From: Blasia pusilla
Lineage: Eukaryota
Reading direction: 5' to 3'
Assembly: GCA_050084515.1 (NCBI GenBank)
Contig: CM114271.1
Span: 11,532,001 to 11,596,000 of the forward strand
DNA: 64,000 nucleotides
Both the position numbers and the translations under genes were made by a program. Of this stretch, positions 2,566 to 56,645 are shown piece after piece; the stretch's first letter is position 1, and each line of letters starts with the position of its first letter. Below the pieces are notes generated by a model. That model did not search any database. It was not told the DNA's origin and saw only the letters and a list, made by a program, of their open reading frames with translations.

Positions 2566-4439
2566 GATGCAAAATGAGGGGGGCTGGTATTTTGGCAGGA
2601 GAGAGTAAGAGAGGAGAGGAAGAGAGGAAGAGAGGAGAGTCTCTCTTCAAAAAAAAGGGCCAAATCCGCCTCCTCTCTTCAAAACTTTATGATATATTTG
2701 AAATTTTTGTTTGCTTTCAAATCCATGAAATCTTTAGAAGAGAGTAGGTAGTGGTCCACATTTGGCCCTAAAAAAACCTCCTTTTTCCTTGGGGCAAAAA
2801 AAAAGTAGACATCATAAGACCACCACAAACATTTTTCCATCACTCTCCATGTGAGCCTAAGTTTCTTAACATCTCCTCATCTCGGTCAACAAAAAGCAGT
2901 GCCCTTGGTATTTTTGTTGGAGGACCACCCGGATGCCAACCCTAAGCATCTACTCCAAGGCATCTTGCCTGAAATTTCTACCTCATCTACTTACAGAACC
3001 TGCCCTAACTAAAGCCTCTTGAGCAACATTGATGGCATAGGCTTGACTGTCTCTTGGACATGCTTGAAGGTGAGATCTACCTCTATATTCTTCCCATGCT
3101 TGCTTCTTCTCAATCTGGTTCGAGCCCCGCCCTCGTTCACACCTCCACTTAGCTCCACCTGCACAAATCTTCGAAATCACTCCTTGGATCCTCTCAACTC
3201 TATAGATCTCTCCTTGGATTCTCAAGCTTTATGGCCTTCAAATGAGGTCCTCTAGGCTTCCATGAGGAATCTTCTAGCCCACAAGAGTCCAAGCATTTGA
3301 GCTCAGCCTCCATTGACCTCTTCTTAGCCCCTTATTCTTCATTTCTTGGCCCTAACAATCAGATCCACCCCTTGGTTCAAACCCTCCTCTACAACAAAGC
3401 AATCAAGCACTCTATCTCCTTCATTGGATACCCTGGAGACTCCCTAGTGCCTACACCATCTCCCTTGTCTCCTCTAGGCTTGAGGTCAATGGAGTGACTT
3501 GGCTGCATTATCACCTTGTACAATCTTCTTGACTTGTTCTTGGACGACTTCTTCTTTGGGCCTTTCTCTTGCACCACCTCCACAAGTCCAAAAACATATT
3601 CAGAAAACTTTTACAAACACCATTATGGGTTCAAAAATCTCGTCCTTTATTACCTCCGAAGGAACTCGAAATGTACATTGAACCTAGTCTATGATTTCTT
3701 CCTCGTCATCTATAAATTTACTCCTAACTCTCCTCGGTGACAGTACCAAAGGAATGTCCTGGGATTCAAGTGGCTCCTCTGGCCGGTTGTAGACGGGGAT
3801 CGAAAATGTTGGCAAATTCGAGAGCCTTGGCCCCCCCCTAGGTACACCTTAACGGTCCCATGTAACCTGTCTCGAGTCCCACCGCCTTCCTCGGCAAAAG
3901 ATACCTTGCACGCTCCGCAATGTGACACCCATGCAGTATCAATATCTGCTCCGTCCCCGGTAATACCACTATGGCAACCGTACAGGTAGAAGGAATCCAA
4001 CACGTCTGAGAGAAGAAAAGAATCCTACGCCTGCCTTTACGAGTTGAGGGGAAGGTGCCAAGGGAAGAAGCCCGCCAGACTGCCTGATCCGAAAGGGTCC
4101 GATCAGGCAACCTGTCGGAATCAAACAGGTTGCCTAGAGGTGGTAAAAAGGGTCCAGTGGTCAAAAAGAGAAAAGTTGCAAGGAGGAGAAATCCGACGGG
4201 TTGCGATGGTCATAAAGTGAAAATTGCAAGCGAGGAGAAATCCGACGGGTTGCAAAGTAGAAGACCGTGGAGTACATAGACGATCACATTCAAAAAGAAA
4301 AATGATCACCAAACATTTACAAGCACCACCATCGATCGAAAAAATCTCTTGCTTTATATCATCCGAAAAAGCTCAGAATCAGACATTTGATCTATTCTAT
4401 GAAATCTTTTGCCAAATTATCAAAAACTCCCTACTCCAA

Positions 4440-5014
4440 ACGCCGCTGCAGTCAAGTGGTCGTTGAGTTCTTTGAACTCACTCGTCATCGCCCCTGAGCT
4501 CTTGCAAAATCACTTTCGCCTTGCCCTCCCGATTTTGGGAATCGTTGGAAGTGACGATGGAGTCACTACCAAGGATGGCTCTGGAACCGAGCTCTCGGCC
4601 GGTGGAGAGTTTACGCCCCAACGAGCCTTTCGATTACGCCTTTGCCTCCTTGCAAAGGTAAAACGATTCTCGCCTTCCTCGAGGCGAGAGAATGTTCTGC
4701 CACTCTGCCAGCGCCTCGATACTCGCCCCTGAAAGGCCCACTAAGTCGAACACCAAGTCACCCGGCCTTGAGCAGAGCTCGATGAGCGTTTGCATCGGGT
4801 GGCGACTTTTCCTTCCCCGAAGCGGGTAGTCTTGTCTTGCATGTAAATTCCGAGGGGAATTGTACAAACTATCTAAGTGCACCCATCGAGCATGGATCCA
4901 CAGGATCCTGGATCTTGAACACCTGGAAATTGTGCTCGGGCGGAACGGGCAAAGACACGTAGGAGTGGTCCATCTAAATCAAAGACGAAACAATGTCGAA
5001 ACTAAAGAAGTCGC
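4440..5014 (-). CDS. Probable last exon: C-terminal SAM-binding half of an N6/N4 methyltransferase-like fold (frameshifted)
   Basis: RGRKSRHPMQTLIELCSRPGDLVFDLVGLSGASIEA, then after small indels WQSGR(N)IL.ALEE. Matches the LI..S.PGD.VLDPF.GSG.T..A...GR..IG.E pattern. The 3' end is approximate. Confidence 0.6.
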
Positions 5015-5039
5015 CTTGAGAAGATTTTCAATAATCGAC

Positions 5040-5420
5040 TTTGGATCAACTGCCGAGTCCGACGGGTTGTTTGTCCCGACCCACCAGCCGGAACCCGACC
5101 GGGTTGCGCTTGCTTTTGGGTTTTCCAAGTTGATTTTGGTTTTCGGATGCAACCCGTCGGAAGGCGTCGGGTTCTTTGGCCTAGACCAGCCCATGCTTGC
5201 CTGAGAGCAACCCGTCTGATAGCAACCCGTCGCTATTAGACGGGTTGCATCCAAAACCCAAAATCAACTGCAACCCGTCGGGTTCCGACGGGTGCAGTCA
5301 CACCGCGGTTTTCCCTCTGTATGTGGGAAAGATGCAACCCGTCGGAAACCGACGGGTTGCTCTCAACCGAGCATGGGCTGCTCTAAGCCAGCAACCCGTC
5401 GCCTTCTGACGGGTTGCTCA
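5040..5420. repeat. Intronic cluster of about 7 palindromic repeats
   Basis: For example tgcaacccgtcggaaaccgacgggttgc at 5333 and gcaacccgtcgccttctgacgggttgc at 5391. Confidence 0.9.
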
Positions 5421-5498
5421 CGGACAAAAAAAACCCAGACTGACTCTCATTCATCATTTTAAGATAATTGAAATTATTGTACAGGAATTGAGCCTTAC

Positions 5499-7506
5499 CC
5501 GAATCTGACTCGTTGCGGATCGGAGTGGGTACTCGTTTTTGATGATCCATGATTGTGCCGTCCTCCACTTTAGCGACCTCTTGACGCACTGGAGGTTGAA
5601 GAGCTCGTTCTCGCTCCCTCCAGTCAACACCAAGAAGCAACCCCTGTCACTCATATAGGCGTCTGCAAAGGAAAACAAAAGTACAATCTGGTCATAAGTG
5701 AGCGGCAGATTCCACTCAGGTACCTCGTCCGCCGGATTTTTGCCCCAAAGTCGCAACCTCGAGGGCAGATCGGCGATCAAGAGATCCACCGCAACCTCTT
5801 CCATCACTCCATTCACCGTCCAGGCAGCGTGCCCGTTTCGTTGGAGCTTCCGTCCCAGCGTTGTCAATTTTTCGATGGCAGTTGTCGACGCTTGAGAACT
5901 GAAGCTGTTTAGCTCATCCAGTAAAGAGGTGAACTGAAGGAGGACGCTTGTCCGGGTCGTTGTTTGTTTGTGTCTTCCCAAGGATGATGGGTTGTATTCT
6001 CCTTGGGACAACCCGGGCACCTCTCGCTTCCGCTTCTCCCTAGTCTGGGGACGGCTTGTCGGGGTTTCTATGACCTCGGATTCTCGTGGCGTTTTCTTCG
6101 CCGAGGACCTGGTCCGACCCTCTCTTCCCGCTCGTCCGGACGATTTCGCCTCTGGCCTCTCATCTTCAGGCTCTCTTTGGGAAGTCTCGCCTCTGAATTT
6201 TTCCCTCCCCTCGCCTTGCCTTTGAGACCCGCTGTGGATTTGTCTTTGGCTGTCCGGACCTTGAAGCCAACTCGGTGTCTCGTGGGCCTGCTCTTCTGCA
6301 TCTCCTCCGAAGAAGTCTTCAGGCTGGACGAAATTTGGGATGTCGTCTTGTCCTGAGGCCACTGCATCATGGAGCACTCGTAAGTCCTTATCCGTGATGT
6401 CTTCAGGGTTGTTGAAGTCGAGCCAAATGGGGCAATTCTCCACCTCCCAATCCGACATGTGCTGACCCATCTCCACGTCGTACATGGAGAATGTCTCTGC
6501 ATCCGGCGGCGAAGCCCACAATTTCAAGGCTGCCGGTAATTTTCCCCACGTACCTACGTTCTTACACTGGACGAGGTACCTGAATACCATCCGTTGGGCA
6601 GCTTTTAGTCGAACATTATCGGCCGTCTGCTCCTGTAGATCTCGCTTCTTCTTCGCTTGATCCCGTTTGTTACCCTCTACTTCTTCGTCAAGCTCTGCCT
6701 GAGGGAGGACGCAAACCTTGAACATGGTCTTGAATCCTGGGTTCTTGGTTGGCTTGTCCCCGATGTCGTCGAGCCAAACCTCGTAATCTCCAGAACTTTC
6801 AAGGTTTGCTTCCGGCGGAATGGGCTCTAATCTTCTGAGCTCCGCTTGCAGACCGTCCAGCACGGACTTCCCGATTACCCGCAACGCGTCCCAGAACGAC
6901 CATTCGCGTAGCCAATGCGAGATCACTGGATCGGACACACCCGGAGGATGGTGTGCCACCCTCTTCTGGGCCTCTAAGCCCTCGAGACTGATTTTCATCA
7001 GTCGTATCCTCCTGGACTCGCTAATCCCGGATAACGCAAAACGATGCACGCGATCCAGCGACACTTTCTCCCCAATCCGACCATGCGGATCTTCATCCCT
7101 CTTCCGCTGACGCTTGATAATCGCCTTGAGCTCCTTGTAGAACTCCGGACCAAGTTTGGGGTTGAGAATGCTGATGTATCGCTGCATCTTGCTCGCCGTG
7201 TATTTCGTTGCAGCAGATACAACAGCTTGGATGAATTTGGCGCGCTCAGACGCAGATACCTTCTCCCTCCGCTCCAGCTCCAGTGCAGCGCTTTTCTTCG
7301 CGGCCTGTATCTTCGACCAGCAAAGGATGGTTACGGCTGCATCTTGAGAAATAAACTTGTTTGCCCAAGTTTTCTTCTTAATCTGAGCACCCTTTGCAAG
7401 CATCTGATTGACGAGGGCATCGCCCAAGAACCCCCTGTACTCTCCCGGGTACGTCGTAAGCACCTTCCTCATCCAATGGTGGGTGACATTCCCCTCCGAT
7501 ACAATC
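5499..7506 (-). CDS. Large exon: helical region, disordered linker, N-terminal half of a beta-class amino-methyltransferase-like fold
   Basis: Lies in the 686-aa ORF 5454-7514. AG acceptor at 7508-7507 is in phase with the ParB exon and GT donor is at 5498. VDLLIADLPS (about 5761-5790) resembles motif IV D-P-P-Y, followed by AYMSDRGCFLVL and WRTAQSWII. Confidence 0.7.
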
Positions 7507-7519
7507 CTGCACATCCAAA

Positions 7520-8370
7520 CTCAACCCGTCAGGAAATTACATGGGTTCCTGCAACCCGTCGGACTCGACGGGTCGTCACAAGCTCAGGGTCGGATTCTAG
7601 CAACAAGCTAAATGATGCAACCCGTCGGACTCGACAAAGTTGCATTCAGATTTGCTAATGCCAGGTAAGCAACTTTCGCCGGACTCCGACGGGTTCCGGA
7701 TCGCACGCTTTTTCGGATGTTTTTAAGATTGCAATCGGTCGGACTCGGCGACTTGTATGATTGAACATAGATTTAACTAGTTGTTGGCCAAAGCAAACCG
7801 CCGGAGTCCGACGGGTTGCTCGATAGTCGCTTGTGAGGTTGTTTTTAAGAATGCAACTCGTCGGACTTCGACGAAGTTGCTCGAGGATCGACGCGTTTAG
7901 AAGGTTTTGCCCCAAAGCAACCCGTTGAGTCCGACGGGTTGCTTGCCTCGAAGCTATTTTTCCCCATATCAACCCGTCGGAGTCCGATGGGTTGATTTCG
8001 GCCAAAAACAGTTTCGAGGCAAGCAACCCGTCGAACTTCGACCGATTGCTTTGGGGCAAAAACCTTCTAAACCTGTAGTCACTCGAGCAACTCGTCGGAG
8101 TCCGACGAGTTGCATTCTTAAAAAAACAACCTCACAAGGCGGCCTGTCGAGCAACCCGTTGGACTCCGACGATTTGCTTTGGGCCAAAAACTAGTTAAAT
8201 CTATGTTCCATCAAACAAGTCGTCGGAGTCCGACGAGTGTCAATCTTAAAAAAACATTCGGAAAACCGTGCAGTCTAGCAACCCGTCGGAGTCCGATGAG
8301 TTGCTTTCTGCCTAAACAAACCTAACTCATTCATCAATCGAGCAACTCGTCGGAGTCCGACGAGTTGCAA
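7520..8370. repeat. Intronic array of about 14 palindromes at about 52-66 bp spacing, forming a roughly 630-bp foldback
   Basis: Copies near 7550, 7616, 7668, 7730, 7793, 7852, 7917, 7969, 8023, 8087, 8151, 8215, 8278, 8342. Spacers mirror each other around about 7982. Confidence 0.9.
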
Positions 8371-8389
8371 AAGTGTTAAAGATACTTAC

Positions 8390-8788
8390 GTGTTCATGGC
8401 ATGCATTGCCATCTCCACCGTCGCCATGTGATGAGGGTATGGATGAAGGACGATTTGCCTTCACGCAGAAATGTGCCTCCAATGAGTTGGGGCGCTCCTC
8501 CGCAAACTTGGTCCACGCCATGAACCTGTGATTTCCATCCCACATGAAGAAATGCAGATTCCTCATCCAGCTGAATTCCGTGCCCTCAACTTGCCTTCTG
8601 AAGTCCTGATCTCGCATCCTCCAGAATGTGTCGAGATTTTCCAAGTCCTCCTCGGTAACCAGAGCTTGGGTTCCATGCTCGTCGTAAGGCTGAACATAGA
8701 AGGGAGGAAAACTGTCCACGTAGGATGCTGTCGCCGCCGATTGTTTTAGCTTTGCGATGTCCTCGTCGGACTGTATGTCGCCGGACGA
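8390..8788 (-). CDS. Exon encoding a ParB/Sulfiredoxin-like domain (one apparent +1 frameshift near 8455)
   Basis: DEDIAKLKQSAATASYVDSFPPFYV...FFMWDGNHRFMAW. After frame correction against copy 2 it continues VKAIVLHPYPHHMATVEMAMHAMN. GT donor at 8389 (gtaagt). Confidence 0.65.
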
Positions 8789-9083
8789 GTTCAAGATTCA
8801 CCCGACCTTTCATGTGTCATTGTTGAAGAAATATCTTCAAGATAATGGACGTTTCACGCGGAGACAGGTGGTGAGACCGCACCCGGTCATCATAAATGAG
8901 AAGCCAAAGTTTGAGGTGGAGACCATCTTACGTTCGAGGCGTCGGGCCAACAAGTATGAATACTTGGTAAAATGGAAGGGCTACCATGTGAAGGAGGCGA
9001 CTTGGATTGCGGAGGCAGATTTGGAACACGCGCAAGAGTTGTTGCAAGACTTCAAGCGAACACAAGCGAAGCACATGCGTTAG
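8789..9083 (+). mobile_element. Chromovirus (Ty3/gypsy) integrase C-terminus with chromodomain, fragment
   Basis: IHPTFHVSLLKKY then FEVETILRSRRRANKYEYLVKWKGYHVKEATWIAEADLEHAQELL. Confidence 0.85.
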
Positions 9084-9484: not shown

Positions 9485-10859
9485 TTTGTAGACCAGGTAA
9501 ACATGTGTGATGTTTACAAGAGTGAGCCAGAAGAGTCTAAGGTTGCACACTTAGTTAGCTTATTTGATAGGTTAGTTCTTTGGAACCTGTCTAGGCTTAT
9601 CAAAGAGGAGAGGCTAATAATTCTAAGTGGGGCAAAGCGACAACTATAGACTAAGAGGAATTGCGGGTTAGCCACCTGAACGCAATTCAATGTGAAGGGG
9701 TAGGCTGCCCAGGAGACTTGACATAACAAAGGTTTGCGTTGATGAGGGCATCAACCTCTAAAGAGGGGTGAGTGTCGCGACCCTCATGACCAAACGAGTG
9801 CCAAGCGGAACATCGGAACATTAGCGGGCTCACGCTAAGATGGTTTGCACGTTGGAGTAGTCTCAAAGAGGAGACAAGAGACGAAACGCGAGCGAGGCGT
9901 CGCGTTTCAGATGTTGTGGTCGCGACCGAGAAATCTGGACCAAACGCGGAATGAGACTTGAAAGAAGTTGAGTCTAGGAAGTGGGTTGCCAAAGGAAGAA
10001 TCCGGATTTGGAACGCCACTAGCGTTTGAGAGTTTTTGACTGTATTTATGACCATAACTTTGAGCGCCAAGATGCGTTTGGATTAAATAAGGGTGCATTA
10101 GAAAGCTTATGGAAAGCTGGTTCAAACGCACTAAAGATCTTTGCAAACGCTTTAGCACTGGCTGAGAAACAACCCGGAAACGACTGTAAGTAGAGTTGGG
10201 TTGAGGGCCACAATGAAGGACCCGACCCTCCTTTTCCAAAGGGGGAGGGTTATTGGAGAACCCCAGAAGTACTAGTAAGGGGGAAGGTCTTCGAGAGTGC
10301 TTGGAACCCAAACCCCCACTTTGGGCGCCGTAGGGCGGCTCAAGGGCATGGAACGGAACGCGAGTTTGGGAGTTGGGTTGGAAAACCTGCACCAAGTCTA
10401 TTGAGGCGATTTTAGACATCCCTCTTGGATGTCACACCGCGACTCAATTACTTGGGTCTCGGTTTGGAACTCACACGAGGTCCGTTGAACAGTTGGGATC
10501 GCTAGGCGCGCAAGTGCCGTTTCAGATCCCTGGACTAACCAGGAAGTCTGTTCCAAGTCTTGAAGGACTTGCCGTGTTTTGGAAACTAGGAACTAAGGAA
10601 GGTTGAGCTTGATGAGACGCCGAGTTGAGAACTCGGTGGGTTGGAACGCTGGTTGGCCCGGACCCGACTAACGAGAGTGCGTGTTTGGATGCAGATCGGC
10701 GATGAGATCGTGACCTACTGAACGTACGCTTCCGCAACACTAAAGATTGACGTTCAAGGAGAGTAGGGGCGCAAAAATATGATGTTGATGCCACGGATCC
10801 GACATCGGGTGATCTCAATGCCATAGCGGTAATCTGCTCTGTAGCTGATGTATCTGAGC

Positions 10860-13400
10860 AGCCATCCTAGCCTCACGCTCGACATCTCCCTCGACGCGTC
10901 TAGGTGGTAGGACTCTACCTCCTCCATGGGCTGCTCCACCATCGTGTCGAGCAACTCCAACTCCTCGTTCCCCAAGAGGACCATCTGGTGCACGATCTCT
11001 AAGTCCACCTGGACCGACTACTCGCTCTTGTGCTTTCTCTGGCCCTCGGTCCGGACGTAACTCAGGATGTAAACTGAAACATCTAGCGCGTGTATGACCA
11101 TACCTCTGAAAATAGTCACACTGATAACCTCCTGGTGCAACACCATCTCCTCCTCCATGTTGAGGCTCACGACCATGACCCTAACGAGTGCAATCATGTT
11201 GATGATGGGCTCCACCACATGACCAACAAGTAATAGTAGGCGGCTGTTGCTGAGCCGCATATGAAGGCGCAGGTCTCTATGGCACGGCCTCCCGGTATCC
11301 TCCCTGAGCTCATGGTGCCACAGCCGACCTATCTCAAAGTCCACGTTGCTGCAAAGGTGGTGAAGACAATCGCGACTGCTCTCGTCTAGAACCCATGGTG
11401 GCTACGCTCTCTTATGCCATGTTGCGCTCAATGTTCTCAACGGTCCTAAAAACATCTCTCAACGTAGGGAGGTGTTCATAAGAAGCACCCCCTCATGCAC
11501 TCATGTCCGCAGGGTCCGGTCTAGCATCACGTACCATGACTGGATAGCCTGGGCCTTTGTCACCCCCTTAGTGACGTTGATCAATCAGCGCAAGCGAGTG
11601 TAAACCTCACGCAAACTCTCCCCCGGGCGCCTCTGGAAGTCATGGATGCTCCGCAACTTCCCCGTCCGTACCCCCTGGTAGCTCGCCCTCAACTCAGCAA
11701 AGAACTCGACCACGGGGTTGAATCTGGGATGAACCCGACTAGACGGTGCAACTGCTCCAGTGCGAGTGACCCCTCCTAAAACATCACTAGTGGAAGAGGA
11801 AGTAGCCTCTCTTGACTCCTCCTCCTCATCTGGGAACGGCTCCGGCCATGACACATAGTGTGGGTCATAGTAGAGTCGCCATGCCTCAATCTCCTGGGCA
11901 TATCTGTGGGAGAACTCATAGTAATCGTCCATGGGTGCCCCCTCTAAATGCTGGAACATACCATTCCATGTTGTAAATGGGTTGAACTCTCTAGAGTTCC
12001 TAGCCCGCTGTGAGTCACGCCAACTCCTAAACTCCGCAATGAAGTCGTGTAGCTCTATGGTGCCTACAGCACCCAAAAACCTACGAGGTCCTCTATCCCA
12101 GTCGTCCATCTCGTACGCCCAACTAGTAGGACCACTCAATGTGTATAGTGGATCACTAACACACTCCTCTACACGCTCCCCCTTGTCTGAAGATAACACA
12201 GAAGGAGATCGAGGTGGTCTCTCACGTGGAGATCCTCGAAACCTCGCACCACTCCGAGTAAACCCTCCAGAGCTACTCTCAGGTCCACTACCTTGCCTCT
12301 CAAAATCCTGAAAGGAGGCCATGATGGCCCTCGTGCCCCTCTCACACGATCACTCTCAACCTCGCGAGTAATCCCTCAATCACTTATCCCAAACATGCGG
12401 CACTCAATCTACACTCTCCCTCCCCGAGACGTGTAACATGCGATAACAAGTGGCGTGGTGCGGCAAATCGACCACGCTATCATCTCATCGATAACCTACC
12501 CTTAACTCTAGGCATCCTACACAAGTCTATGTCCCCTAAACCACATACATAAATGATGCTCTGAGCATCCACACAACCCAATATCCCCAAATAAACTACC
12601 AAAATCCCAGAATCCCTCACGCGTGCAGGATAAAGGACCAGAATGGGTAACCTGAACACATGTCGATGTTGCTCCTCAGCAACTGCAAATCTCAACCCCA
12701 ACTCTGTCGTGGAGACAACTCCTCCAATCAGCAAGTCATACTCCTCCCGTACTGACGTTGCTCAAAACTCCTCGATGGACAGTGCGGTTCCAACGGTACG
12801 GAATGGCTATAAACGGCACGGCCCTCGATGGTGGGATGCGGCACTCGAAAACATATCCTCCTCAATCAACAATAAACCCACACTCTGCTCCACAATGATG
12901 GTGCAGCTCTGCGATCGAGACGGTGCGGCCACGAGCGGCACGGTGCGGCAATCGGCGGCGCGTTGCGGCTACGGGCATCACGGCACGGTACTCGATCATT
13001 GTTGAGTGGATACCAATGACAACATAGCAGCATGAAATCAAAACTCAAACACCATAATCGGAGGTCATCTACCATCACTGGTTGATGACGCAACTGCGAT
13101 GACGATGGCGGCCAAACCAAAGTACGTGGTGGCTGCGCAAGTCAGAGAATCAACGGTGGTCGTGGAAGACCCTCCACTTCGTAATGGCGGAAATGGCAAC
13201 CAAAGGGTGGACAACGGCTGAATGCGGTTCTGAGCATCGCTAGGCAACGGCAACGGCAACGACCGACGGTGGCCGATGGACGGTGGATCGTTGACAGTGA
13301 CGATTGACCGTTGATGGTGATGACGGATCGTTGGTGGTGACGGTTGATAGTTGAACATCGATGGTGAAGGTTGACAGGTGATGGTGACTATGACGGCGAC
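10860..13400 (-). mobile_element. Ty3/gypsy gag relic plus 5' leader, related to the element at 43100-51929
   Basis: ORF 11585-12322 has RRFLGAVGTIELHDFIAEF..FQHLEGAPMDDYYEF..YQGVRTGKL, which aligns with RRFLGAMGTIDLDDFIEEF..FQHLEGPPMDDYMEF..YQGVRTDKV at 44280-44730. Boundaries approximate. Confidence 0.75.
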
Positions 13401-34306: not shown

Positions 34307-40290
<5,984 letters not shown>

Positions 40291-53409: not shown

Positions 53410-56400
53410 TAAGTTCAACCCGTCGGATTCCAACAAGTTGCAACCCATCGCAATCCGAATGGTTGCAATCTTTCCGAATCCGAATGGTTGTAAATCGTCG
53501 GACTTCGACTAGTTTCAACCTGTCAGATTCCGACGGGTTGCAAAGCGACAAAATCCGTTTGCTTGCAAATCTTCAGAATCTAACTATCTACCACCCAGCT
53601 AAGTGTGACTTCCACCCCGTCGAAGTCCGACGGGTTGCATGGGGTCTTGGGAAGTCCTGTCAATGACTAGAACTTTGCCACCTTTGTCCTTGCAACCCCT
53701 CAGAGATGTACAGGTTGCACGTCGTGCAAACCGTCAGAGTCCGTTGGATTGCACATGGTTCTAGGTCGGTACCCCCTGCCAGTGCAACCGGTATGGTTCC
53801 GTTAGGTTGCACGATGGGTGCTTCTTCCTTGCAACCCGCCGGAGTCGGGTTGCATAAGGACCTCGGATGGATTTCCAATGGCAAGTGAACTGTGCAACCC
53901 GTCGAAGCCCGACGGGTTGCTAGGGGACCTCAACTTGATTTCCCTTGTCGAGGGAAGCGTGCAACCTGTCGAAGACCCGGGTTGCACGGGGATCTCGTCT
54001 TGATGTCCCACGATGAGGGAAGCATGCAACGCGACGGAGACCAACAGGTTGCTCGAGAACCTCGCTTGATGTCCCACAACGAGGGAAGCTTGCAACCCAT
54101 CAAAGTCCGATAGGTTGCAGGTTCAACGAGTCCAATGGGTTGCACGTCCGATGAGTCTGACGGGTTGCACGTCCGGCGAGTCCGACAGGTTGCACGTTTC
54201 CCATGTGCAAAGCACCGTAACGGCTGATGTCGCCATCGGTGCAATAGTTCCCATGAACCAATGGTAAGCTCAACGACTCAAAAAGTATATAAGTCATAAT
54301 TTTTTCTCATTTCCCTTTTTCAATCTGCGATTTCACTTGGAGCTCTTCCTCCACCGACAAGTCCTCCCAATAGTTGAGGTCCCCGCATCCGCTGAACACA
54401 TCGGTTACTCAGAGCCCTTTGTTGGAAGGTAACGACGCTCCAAGACACGATGCTTTGAGAGTTGGGTTTAGGCAAGCCGCTCCGCTGGAAGGTAACGATA
54501 CTCCAAGAAACGACGCTATGAGAGTTGGGTTTAGGCACTCGATCGAAGATCCAAGAGTTTAGCCAGTCGATCAGATTTCTGGAGTGCATAGGTGTAGATA
54601 ACATTGATGAGGAAGAAAACACAAGCAATGAAGGTTGGGAGCGTCACTCCCAAGTCCATTAGAACTCCTGCATTGCCATCGCTTGGCGGTGGAAATTAGG
54701 CAACAAGAAATAGAGGATAGGGAGAGGGAAGCAGAAATGCACAAGCATGAGGTTGTGGCAAAGCTTGCTCTGGAAGAGCTCCCAAGGTAGAACGCGGAGG
54801 CCGAGGCATCTAAGGCCTTGAAGAAAAGAGTTTCGGACGAGAAGCGAGAGAAGAAGCGTCTAGACGTCTCCATCAAGAGAGCAGAATTGGCAAAAGCAGG
54901 GAGGGAAAAAGCTATCGCCGTGGAAGAAAACCCCGCCCATCCAACGGACAATGTTGAGATGGAGGATATGTCCCTGATGAGATCTGGGGACACAATGAAC
55001 TTAAAATTGGTTAAGGAAACCGCAAAAGTTCAAGAGACGGACGAGGAGGTCATGAGGATAGCAAGTGTGGAGATGGTGGACATCTGTGAAGAAGCTGGAG
55101 AAGAGTCGTCATCATCATTGAGCCCGCTGGAAGAAATTGACCTCTATCGCATCAATGAATTTCCTGTGGACTTGCCACCTGCTGTTCGAGAGCAGCTGGC
55201 CGACATCAACACCAACCCAATTTTCGAGCGGGTAAGTAGACAAGGGCATATATGAAATTGCATTCTCAATTCCTTTGTAAATCCGCAAAATCTAAAAAAG
55301 TAGCTTATTGGCATTCCTCGCCATTGTGCCAGGTTGTTAAGCAGATGTCAGTGGTGGACGGTCACAAGTCCCCAAGAATTTCACTTTTTTGACTGCAAAA
55401 AATGGAGTACGTCCGCGAAATTCAGTCGGACGAGGACATCTCAAAGCTGAAGCAGTCGGTTGCGACAACATCCTATATCAACAACTTCCCTCCATTCTAT
55501 GTTTGGCCTTATGATGAACATGGAATGCAGGCTCTGGTGACGGAAGAAGACTTGGAGGCCTTAGACCCATTCTGGAGGATTAGAGACGAGGAATTCATAA
55601 GAGCTATTGAAGGAACCCAATACAGCTAGATGCGGAACCTCTACTTCTTCATCTGAGATGGGAACCACATGTATATGGCCTAGTCACAGTTTGTTGAGGA
55701 GCGCTCGAATTCATTGGAGGCGCATTTCTGCGTGAGGGCAATCGTCCTCCATCCATTTCCACATCACATGGCAACGATGCAGATACGTAAGTTCAAATTT
55801 CTCTCAATAATTTTTGCTTGCTTCAACCCGTCGGAGTCTGACGGGTTGCAAAAATGTTCAGATTGTAGATTGGCATGAATCATAGGAGTCGATAGTCACA
55901 ATCCTTTTTGACGTTGCATGGGAAATTTGGATATAGGGACTTTGACGGATTGAAATCAGGTCTTCCATAAGATTTCGCTTGGCAATCTTGCAACCCGTCG
56001 GTCTCCGACAAGTTGCGAAATGAGAAATTGGTAGCCAATTTTTTGGTTGAATCCGGGCTACTGTAATCCGTCGAAGTCCGACGGGTTGCGAAATGACTTT
56101 GCTTTTGAGTGAGGTTTCTGGATGACGCCTATGTTCAGCAACCTGTTCGAGTCCGACGGGTTGAACAATGGTCTTGTTTACAAATCATCGGAGGTCTAAA
56201 AGCAACCCGTCGGACTCCAACGGGTTGCCAAAGGTAAAGTAACCACCCAATTTTTTGGCACTTTTGGCCTAAAAGAAACCCGTCGGACTCCGATGGGTTG
56301 CATTTTCCCCAAAATTTCTTGCTACTTGGTGATTATTTCACCTTTTGCAACTCGTCGAACACTGACATGTTGCTTTTAGGCCTATGATGACAAGACCATT

Positions 56401-56645
56401 ATGCAATTCGTCAGACTCTGACGGGTTTCTGAACACATGTTTTATCCAAAAACCTCACTCAGAATCGAAGCCATTTGGCAACCCGTCAAAGTCTGACGGC
56501 TTGCAACCAAAATTCTTTTGGGTCAAAATTTGGATTGGACTATACTTCTAGGGTATGCTTGCAACCCGTCGGACTCTGACGGATTGCATCACTTCATGCC
56601 AATGGACATCAATGTGCTACCCGTCAGACCACGATGGGTTGCACA
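53410..56645 (+). mobile_element. Palindrome-rich ParB-like element, copy 2 (5' half)
   Basis: Palindrome arrays at 53410-54200 and 55820-56645 flank exons homologous to copy 1. Confidence 0.7.
54560..55786 (+). pseudogene. 5' exons of the ParB-like gene (coiled-coil/acidic N-terminus plus ParB-like exon 55333-55786)
   Basis: Intron 55232-55332 (gtaagt...ccag). PRISLF*LQKMEYVREIQSDEDISKLKQSVATTSYINNFPPFYV...FFI*DGNHMYMA*. Donor gtaagt at 55787, same position as in copy 1. Start approximate. Confidence 0.7.

Follow-up and report, generated by a model that had tools for sequence, protein, structure and literature searches.

Transposon accessory proteins that bind and mark the DNA of their own element are rare, the anti-silencing factor of VANDAL being the textbook case, and the bdelloid N4CMT is a eukaryotic N4C methylase of prokaryotic origin. 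Accessory proteins of about 1100 aa that combine a ParB-like part with a DNA methylase have been published for algal giant transposons (PMC12477816; 10.1101/2025.02.11.637652). The Ectocarpus element Sola1-1_Ec32 is described as encoding such a protein of 1104 aa, predicted to make 4mC or 6mA (PMC12477816), ParB-like and methylase parts are reported from the PAG2/PAG3 cassette of red-algal Plavaka elements (10.1101/2025.02.11.637652), and green-algal proteins are credited to Iyer et al. 2011 by PMC12477816. In Bostrychia, according to the description of its elements, the two parts lie on separate genes, one joining the ParB-like part with a 2OG oxygenase, the other joining the methylase with SET.

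Fusions of ParB with N6_N4 methyltransferases from phages and prophages are reported to be enriched in prophages (PMC12704722); together with the prokaryotic examples compared here, Vibrio phage D93 (L003) and 80 prokaryotic loci, this supports a preliminary description of the present locus, in which such fusions were called typical of phages. MpDN4MT1 of Marchantia keeps the motif TSPPY and is described as a two-copy, sperm-specific host gene (10.1101/2021.02.12.428880). DUF3723 (PF12520) of the Starships is described as a conserved accessory gene of giant fungal mobile elements, of unknown function (PMC9156397).

Here we present a locus from Blasia pusilla, located in a stretch of 64,000 nucleotides (the window; contig CM114271.1, positions 11,532,001 to 11,596,000), which is probably a degenerated copy of a gene that contains introns, is dispersed in many copies and is shared with Riccia liverworts. 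An ORF check of the window confirmed three minus-strand open reading frames at 8327-8797 (containing WDGNHRFMAW), 5454-7520 (688 aa, containing VDLLIADLPS) and 4634-4978 (containing LIELCSRPGDLVFDLVGLSGASIEA). The three exons of copy 1 (Table 1) are colinear with one full-length protein of Riccia sorocarpa, P0039 (1207 aa), over its residues 200-283, 324-1045 and 1109-1142. This colinearity is far beyond chance and shows that the exons belong to one gene, as had been proposed; relatives that match both exon 1 and exon 2, a common position of intron 2 and two junction reads argue for the same unit.

Table 1. Coordinates of the gene copies, the palindrome arrays and the adjoining retroelement fragment in the window.
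Feature	Position	Strand	Remarks
3' flank of copy 1, palindrome units	4109..4253	.	49-bp tandem repeat
Copy 1, exon 3	4510..4973	-	C-half of methylase-like domain; at least 2 frame changes
Copy 1, intron 2	4974..5498	-	GT 5498-5497, AG 4975-4974; six palindrome units
Copy 1, exon 2	5499..7506	-	669 codons open; middle domain, linker, N-half of methylase-like domain
Copy 1, intron 1 (GT..AG)	7507..8389	-	filled with 64-bp tandem units, one palindrome in each
Copy 1, exon 1, 5'-truncated	8390..8788	-	encodes DGNHR (ParB/Srx-like?) domain
Gypsy integrase C-end and chromodomain fragment	8790..9083	+	adjoins and truncates copy 1; not part of the gene; Pfam Chromo E 3.2e-16
Palindrome arrays upstream of copy 2	53417..54166	.	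65-67 bp period
Copy 2, exon 1 only	55333..55787	+	4 in-frame stops; donor GT after 55787
Palindrome units in copy 2 intron-1 equivalent	55825..56640	.	

Exon 1 of copy 1, cut at its 5' end at about 8788 by the plus-strand gypsy fragment, carries WDGNHR at 8525-8542 and a 1-nt surplus near 8452-8455 that shifts its frame. It matches residues 200-283 of P0039 with 39% identity (E 6.6e-14) and ends at 8390, followed by a donor GT at 8389-8388. Exon 2, bordered by AG at 7508-7507 and GT at 5498-5497, ranks first among 1369 ORF pieces compared with the family profile (E 2.4e-17). Its helical middle domain, with NPKLGPEF at 7140-7163, is separated by a charged disordered linker from the methylase-like N-half, in which the motif IV-like DLLIADLPS (5760-5786), VPEWN (5709-5723) and DRGCFLVL (5625-5648) were located. 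Exon 3 ranks second of the same 1369 pieces (E 0.23) and is 41% identical to residues 1109-1142 of P0039 (E 0.07); a motif X/I-like block, HPMQTLIEL..GDLVFDLVGLSGAS, lies at 4721-4801 and a motif II-like SGRTFSRLEE at 4675-4704, in another frame. Compared with Pfam, the window's own exons gave no match at E<=1.

The borders first given for exon 1 (8390) and exon 2 (7506-5499) were upheld, but exon 3 starts at 4973 and not at 5014, from where an in-phase stop is met; the acceptor AG at 4975-4974 and two RNA reads mark the real start. A single frameshift, originally considered sufficient, does not restore the gene, as at least three frame changes are present, one in exon 1 and at least two in exon 3.

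Both splice junctions had been predicted to appear in RNA. The two reads mentioned above (run X20) link 5499 to about 4973 across the exon 2-exon 3 junction, whereas the portion of about 6-12% read from three RNA runs contained no read across intron 1 (junction 8390/7506). RNA depth at intron 1 was 0-0.33 in the bins 7478-7945. As 282 of the 340 mapped RNA reads are only 90-95% alike to the window, they come from paralogues, and it is from paralogues that the gene is transcribed. First mates lie on the plus strand in 12, 12 and 8 of 13 exon bins in the three runs, respectively, a pattern consistent with minus-strand RNA provided that the library follows the common stranded design.

A phmmer search with exon 2 against 1.84 billion representatives retrieved 36 proteins, 15 of which are matched by exon 1 as well; 20 of these relatives were looked up, and all 15 that carry a name belong to Riccia. 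In Riccia sorocarpa, 38 named gene models, many of them truncated or split, are distributed over 7 contigs that differ in length. The position of intron 2 is common to relatives, with the models P0001 and P0003 running off at the same residue. DNA run X1 contributed 52,482 contig pieces lying on the stretch at a likeness of at least 90%, and these pieces and the R. sorocarpa models support the repeated, mobile-element-like behaviour suggested at first. Two gene copies are present within the window. The second, initially placed at 54560-55786, proved homologous over exon 1 only (Table 1); it does share the intron position as described, its donor lying at the same codon position as that of copy 1. 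Both copies are fragments among nested retroelements, dead and without function of their own. Nothing useful came from word-seeded homologue searches with exon 1 and exon 2 or from scanning JGI metagenome and IMG/VR viral contigs for relatives, and phmmer searches of PDB sequences with exon 1 and with exon 3 gave nothing relevant.

The assignment to the beta class of N6A/N4C methylases, in which motif IV precedes motif I, is well supported, mostly via the relatives, and this is in line with the class originally named. Pfam PF01555 (N6_N4_Mtase) matches 15 of 20 Riccia paralogues at E<=0.01 (best E 1.9e-7), covering only about positions 166-218 of the 221 in the profile; P0039, P0037 and P0040 score 23.7-26.2 bits, just below the cut-off of 26.7. 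In hhalign the family profile (28 rows) aligned with the 80 prokaryotic ParB-methylase fusions at a probability of 94.9% (E 4.3e-8, 190 columns), placing D-L-P-T-G on D-P-P-Y-N and F-A-G-G-W-G on F-G-G-S-G. Family and fusions run in the same order from motif IV through to motif I, which shows the circular permutation; in the window, DLLIADLPS in exon 2 likewise precedes GDLVFDLVGLSG in exon 3. PADLOC type II methylase models match the family (E 1e-4). Foldseek returned 12 PDB matches at E<=1e-3, and the 11 of these 12 that were displayed are all beta-class DNA methylases; with the P0020 model no match at E<=1e-3 was obtained. Family profile A4 gave one irrelevant match against PDB sequences, and P0040 only a weak match to the methylase 2zie (E 2.2). 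These alignments show homology of the fold to prokaryotic N6_N4 methylases. The phage fusions resemble the family in their homologous beta-class methylase and, putatively on the side of the family, in an N-terminal ParB_N-type domain and in being carried by mobile elements; they differ in their length of about 400 aa, in keeping TDPPYNV, HPTMKP and GGSG, and in being devoid of the long helical middle domain and the disordered linker.

The intact protein of about 1200 aa would consist, from N to C, of a WDGNHR domain, a helical domain, a long charged linker and a methylase fold. The first of these would be ParB/Srx-like, and the last would no longer methylate and would serve as a DNA- or SAM-binding module. 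Such a protein would be an accessory factor encoded by a mobile element, in all likelihood by a DNA transposon, like its counterparts in algae. It would attach to the DNA of its own element, with palindromes of 27-29 bp as candidate binding sites, and would shield the element from silencing or aid its propagation. A decayed transposon-accessory gene with ParB-like and dead methylase parts is the best explanation as a whole, and we consider it likely.

Like the algal proteins, those of the family have the domain order ParB-like (putatively so here), then N4C/N6A-type methylase, and a length of about 1100-1200 aa, and are repeated, element-borne (again putatively) and transcribed at low level, a likeness drawn from published descriptions. 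The family differs in that the host is a land plant with relatives in Riccia liverworts. Members of the algal class are placed beside the transposase of a DDE transposon (Sola1, Plavaka or Mutator); no transposase domain was found among the ORFs scanned here, where both copies are fragments. Around neither copy did an ORF domain scan and a self-comparison of the flanks reveal a transposase, terminal repeats or a target-site duplication, and the mobile element is therefore inferred only. Because ParB-like plus methylase proteins had already been reported from algae, the fusion as such is published and the family is a land-plant variant of this class, the novelty of which was overrated in the preliminary description. 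The role of the algal proteins is itself a recent proposal, and the family would extend the class to land plants in a version with the catalytic motif lost in every copy examined, which suggests that it binds DNA or acts as a decoy instead of methylating.

Motif IV, (D/N/S)-P-P-(Y/F/W/H), is kept in none of the 21 relatives with residues at this site, 18 of which have D-[LMIV]-P-x, as does the window with D-L-P-S; the methylase is therefore probably catalytically dead, and the non-enzymatic role suspected earlier from the degenerate motifs gains support. It is unlikely, in our view, that the family is instead an active N6A/N4C methyltransferase marking the DNA of its own element, a function proposed for the algal proteins, and that the window merely contains a dead copy. 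Such activity would be consistent with a fold homologous to active prokaryotic enzymes, with the motif IV Asp in 20 of the 21 relatives, and with a motif X/I block so nearly invariant among paralogues only 50-90% alike that it indicates selection. Of DPPY and FxGxG, the motifs to be sought in other copies according to the preliminary description, G-x-G (in F-A-G-G-W-G) is kept in 18 of 20 Riccia paralogues, most of which also have an acid in motif II, and these paralogues may bind SAM or even have an unusual activity. However, besides the lost PP-aromatic part, the sequence V-G-L-S-G of the window and of the expressed paralogues of its organism has Leu in place of the first Gly of GxG (positions 4733/4735). 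To our knowledge, no characterised amino-methylase can do without the aromatic residue of motif IV, which keeps the flipped base in position. PMC4738411 regards METTL14-type proteins as inactive where their motifs are disrupted. The Ectocarpus protein is predicted to be active, whereas motif IV is degenerate in 21 of 21 relatives here; compared with MpDN4MT1, the family has D-L-P-S/T, many copies and a large N-terminal extension. A horizontally acquired methylase-like gene that was duplicated as a host family in liverwort-like plants and left pseudogenes would account for introns at a conserved position and for the lack of a transposase beside either copy, and liverworts have indeed domesticated the prokaryote-type N4C methylases MpDN4MT1a/b, as described in 10.1101/2021.02.12.428880. 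We regard this origin as quite improbable in view of the very high copy number in run X1, the dispersal on 7 Riccia contigs with many truncated or split models, the fragmentary state of both window copies among nested retroelements and the position of algal proteins of the same architecture within transposons (PMC12477816). A DIRS-type retrotransposon methylase was rejected as a candidate, since those domains are described as Dam-type and the elements as absent from Streptophyta (10.64898/2026.05.21.726589), and the gene here has introns.

Within the transposon-accessory gene, the part that the preliminary description called a ParB/Srx domain is kept as WDGNHR in 12 of the 15 rows covering the site, the other three reading WDGNHQ, WDGNQQ and LDGNHR. 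The motif G-x-x-R / D-G-x-H-R after strand 3 is the nucleotide-binding motif that defines the ParB/Srx superfamily. A ParB/Srx fold of the domain is unproven; none of the sequence methods recovered it, and what speaks for it is DGNHR together with structural hints, which are weak. With Pfam ParB_N (PF02195) none of 18 family members gave a match at E<=1, NCBIfam and PADLOC models of ParB or DndB had no match in the family, and a PDB sequence search with N-domain profile A2 gave 0 matches. By hhalign the similarity to ParB domains is insignificant, with probabilities of 0.1-2.2%: 2.2% (P 0.022) for the N-terminal ParB_N-type domain of the 80 fusions and 0.4% for 9 canonical ParB proteins. The AlphaFold2 model of P0020 is unreliable in this domain (pLDDT below 50 over residues 116-271). 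All this would suit a domain that is not ParB/Srx-like, with DGNHR arisen by chance or convergence on an unrelated, undescribed fold fused to the methylase-like one, which is a serious possibility, although we lean towards the ParB/Srx-like domain. In its favour are the conservation of WDGNHR, with only one or two residues changed in the three deviating rows, and the single local hhalign match, which falls in register on ParB box I in the 80-fusion comparison (insignificant overall). The ESM Atlas search by structure listed ParB clusters in 5 of the 6 rows displayed (TM 0.50-0.58 over 115-124 residues), four with ParB_N as aligned part and one a cluster with HTH_ParB, and PMC12477816 assigns ParB-like and methylase parts to algal proteins that agree with the family in size and domain order. 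The helical middle domain, which folds well, is possibly a ParB-type DNA-binding helix-turn-helix. An ESM Atlas search with it gave a best score of 0.82 (DUF6551, DndB), no higher than shuffled controls can reach. Among language-model look-alikes of the N-domain, DUF3723 comes closest (score 0.96, 181 of 256 features, 9 of 30 matches), a likeness that comes from one unaligned method applied to part of the protein; PF12520 had no match in any relative scanned at E limits of 0.1 or 1.

The palindrome of 27-29 bp that fills the introns and flanks of the gene is a point new in the present analysis: 37 of 38 units lie beside the two copies (Table 1). The palindromes of the two copies were partly inherited along with the intron, and their clustering alone is no proof of function; as arrays they offer a concrete candidate binding site for the family, comparable to the tandem inverted-repeat arrays described as adjoining the ParB-like gene in Bostrychia. 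More speculative, and rather unlikely, is a land-plant mobile element with a ParB/parS-like system of its own, in which a nucleotide-switch domain, a helix-turn-helix and a dead methylase would recognise the palindrome arrays, spread or clamp on the DNA of the element and shield it from silencing methylation; the N-terminal module may then also underlie DUF3723 of the Starships. Intact, expressible genes of the family, such as P0039, exist in Riccia.

The gene is real and its copy in the window is dead; the closest match is already published, and the class, ParB-like and DNA-methylase accessory proteins of giant algal transposons (PMC12477816; 10.1101/2025.02.11.637652), is known from algae. 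What is new is a land-plant, liverwort-related family, with a catalytic motif that is degenerate throughout the family and with palindrome arrays as a candidate binding site open to test. A literature search on ParB with methylase, transposons, DUF3723 and DN4MT1 turned up no account of such a family in land plants. The accessible text of Iyer et al. 2016 (PMC4738411) lists eukaryotic adenine-methylase clades, including ParB-HTH-fused Dam from chlorophytes and chytrids, and none of the eukaryotic clades in that text is a land-plant clade with such an architecture. In the Plavaka elements of Bostrychia, the available part of the source describes a gene for an N6A-methylase-SET protein and one for a ParB-like-2OG-oxygenase, the latter adjoined by tandem inverted repeats (10.1101/2025.02.11.637652). 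The view of ParB-methylase fusions as phage-type agrees with the available text of PMC12704722, in which prophages are enriched in ParB-N6_N4 fusions.

All three minus-strand open reading frames with the motifs quoted in the preliminary description are present in copy 1, the decayed three-exon gene, and splice sites are in place at the three exon borders listed in the table. Exon 2 contains 669 codons without a stop. The start of exon 3 had been placed at about 5014, from where the in-phase reading runs into a stop; the true start is 4973 (AG at 4975-4974). In RNA run X20 two reads span a junction from 5499 to about 4973, and the frame opened there reads ..PEHNFQVFKIQDPVDP.., similar to ..ASHNFIIPKLDMPPFD.. 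of P0039, a relative of 1207 aa from Riccia sorocarpa. The single frameshift claimed earlier is too few, at least three frame changes being needed because exon 1 has a surplus base and exon 3 is spread over three frames. To bring exons 1 and 2 into phase, a single extra base near 8452-8455 has to be left out; past this point the alternative exon 1 frame reads IVLHPYPHHMATVEMAMHAMN, in agreement with the Riccia block ..IPPV..YKQIEVAMHNLN and with copy 2. The exon 3 frame from 4973 ends in a stop at 4871-4869, with the motif X/I block in the second frame and a motif II-like block (SGRTFSRLEE) in the third.

Open reading frames and exon borders of copy 1
Feature	Position	Strand	Evidence
ORF with WDGNHRFMAW	8327-8797	minus	ORF listing of the window
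ORF with VDLLIADLPS, 688 aa	5454-7520	minus	ORF listing of the window
ORF with LIELCSRPGDLVFDLVGLSGASIEA	4634-4978	minus	ORF listing of the window
Exon 1 end	8390	minus	GTAAGT next
Exon 2 start	7506	minus	AG precedes
Exon 2 end	5499	minus	full codon, then GTAAGG

The likeness of copy 1 to copy 2 stops at 8787, beside a gypsy integrase C-end and chromodomain fragment (8790-9083, plus strand; Chromo E 3.2e-16) that adjoins the 5' end head to head; the first 170-200 codons are therefore missing from copy 1. Copy 2 had been given as 54560-55786 and as the source of the N-terminus; exon 1 homology holds over 55333-55787 only (plus strand) and not over the wider extent; this exon carries four in-frame stops, and the copy ends within intron 1. 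Both copies are pseudogene fragments. Two of the stops in copy 2 fall on tryptophan positions: one takes the place of the WDGNHR Trp, the other that of a Trp which relatives carry in the next helix.

The window's own exons have no Pfam match at E<=1, no homologue in word-seeded searches and none in the PDB. With phmmer against 1.84 billion representatives, 36 proteins match exon 2 at E<=1e-3 (15 at E<=1e-10), and 15 of the 36 match exon 1 as well. Among 20 exon 2 relatives examined, 15 are hypothetical proteins of R. sorocarpa or R. fluitans and five are proteins without a name from Logan, ENA or JGI. P0039, a cluster mate, is colinear with all three exons. A search with the C-terminal part added 19 R. 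sorocarpa paralogues, to a total of 38 named gene models on seven contigs of differing length, several of them neighbouring halves of one gene. The Blasia DNA run X1 places 52,482 contig pieces on the stretch analysed at >=90% likeness, with greater depth over exons than introns; together with the 38 Riccia models this bears out the description of the gene as repeated.

RNA reads are thin over the exons. Since likeness is no more than 90-95% for 282 of the 340 reads, the transcripts stem from paralogues. First mates fall mainly on the plus strand, which suggests minus-strand RNA if the library is of the usual stranded kind. A read pile at 4719-4796 continues on both sides into unlike, in-frame sequence and, by hand translation, gives G-R-N-I-L-C-L-E at the window's frameshift; some expressed paralogue is therefore intact at that point.

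The relatives P0039, P0037 and P0040 match the N6_N4_Mtase profile of Pfam (E 5e-5 to 9e-6, profile positions 165-218), as do 15 of 20 paralogues (best E 1.9e-7); NCBIfam and PADLOC methylase models likewise match. In tblastn against phage genomes P0040 matched 106 records, one alignment covering residues 24-226; of the 20 matches listed, 17 coincide with genes annotated as DNA methylases and three fall in unannotated records. The comparison set consisted of 80 prokaryotic relatives of the Vibrio phage D93 ParB_N + N6_N4 fusion protein. The family C-domain (28 rows) aligned by hhalign with the methylase part of these fusions with a probability of 94.9% and E 4.3e-8 over 190 columns (E 1.2e-7 with window exon 2 included). 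A-D-C-L-Y-L-D-L-P-T-G of the family stands opposite motif IV, A-D-x-x-x-T-D-P-P-Y-N; ..R-G-C-L-I-I-L-H falls on the strand-5 block; Y-H-S-K lies opposite Y-H-W-K-H-E-P, K-C-x-G-F-V opposite H-P-T-M-K-P-V, and D-F-A-G-G-W-G-A-T opposite motif I, D-x-F-G-G-S-G-S-T. As the blocks are colinear, motif IV precedes motif I like in beta-class enzymes, and the proposed beta-class fold is upheld by this order, the Pfam matches and the hhalign score.

Motif IV reads D-[LMIV]-P-x in 18 of 21 relatives with residues at that place (D-L-P-S in the window), and none of the 21 has P-P followed by an aromatic residue. Motif I keeps G-x-G in 18 of 20 Riccia paralogues, and most retain the motif II acid; the first Gly of motif I is Leu in the window and its expressed paralogues. 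As they stand in the window, both motifs had rightly been called degenerate. From these motifs we infer that methyl transfer has probably been lost; DNA binding or SAM binding is possibly retained, as a prediction.

For the N-domain, the ParB/Srx-like assignment is tentative. Sequence methods did not bear it out: Pfam ParB_N matched none of 18 family members at E<=1, a PDB search with the N-domain family profile gave no match, and hhalign reached a probability of 2.2% (P 0.022) with the ParB portion of the 80 prokaryotic fusions, over 37 columns in register on box I, and 0.4% against nine canonical ParB proteins. The AF2 model has pLDDT <50 across the domain. In favour are WDGNHR, with its DGNHR motif, almost invariant among relatives, and a low-confidence ESM Atlas model whose nearest structures are ParB_N clusters (TM 0.50-0.58, 115-124 residues aligned; five of the six matches listed). 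On balance the N-domain is somewhat more likely than not to be ParB/Srx-like.

By language-model features, the closest ESM Atlas clusters to residues 105-285 (N-domain) of the relative P0020 are fungal DUF3723 (score 0.96); DUF3723 proteins make up nine of 30 matches, which also include unnamed cnidarian proteins. The Pfam DUF3723 profile does not match the N-domain. DUF3723 is a conserved, unexplained cargo gene of the fungal Starship giant transposons. Residues 272-445 of P0020 (approximately 7499-6980 in exon 2) form a predicted helical domain with pLDDT >90 from 36 sequences only; Foldseek found no PDB match at E<=1e-3, and among its weak VIA matches the only ones of interest are DNA-binding domains of the ParB family.

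The 8-mer AACCCGTC occurs 41 times in the window versus 1.3 expected. There are 38 palindrome units, GCAACCCGTCGG-AGT-CCGACGGGTTGC, at <=3 mismatches, 32 of them with their 8-bp cores set 7 nt apart, and 37 lie within 4109-8366 or 53417-56640. They are arranged in tandem arrays with a period of 64-67 bp, in introns 1 and 2 and the 3' flank of copy 1 and in the upstream region and intron of copy 2; none of the 38 lies in an exon. Some units, e.g. 8089 and 8344, have matching changes on both arms. The clustering is partly explained by the shared ancestry of copies 1 and 2; the occurrence of units at four or more positions relative to the gene suggests an element studded with palindromes. At 8083-8128 reads of all three RNA runs match about 45 bases around one unit and are unlike on both sides, and 19 reads link 8083 to 8086 on opposite strands, a fold-back; either transcripts of the unit arise at other genomic sites, or these are snap-back library artefacts.

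ORF scans identify the window as plant-type, TE-rich DNA with LINE reverse transcriptase, gypsy RNase H, gag-like ORFs and chromodomains. Upstream of the gypsy fragment, minus-strand ORFs at 10818-12349, in which a CxxC..H..C stretch resembles a zinc knuckle, may represent the gag of a retroelement; a 254-aa ORF among them has no Pfam match at E<=0.01. A LINE-like element at 35833-39252 encodes endonuclease, RVT_1 (E 1.4e-30) and zf-RVT, and its 3' part (37848-39398) recurs at the window start (1-1527) with 90% identity. Besides sequencing runs labelled with a single organism, three air-metagenome runs contain 14-28% of the words of the stretch analysed.
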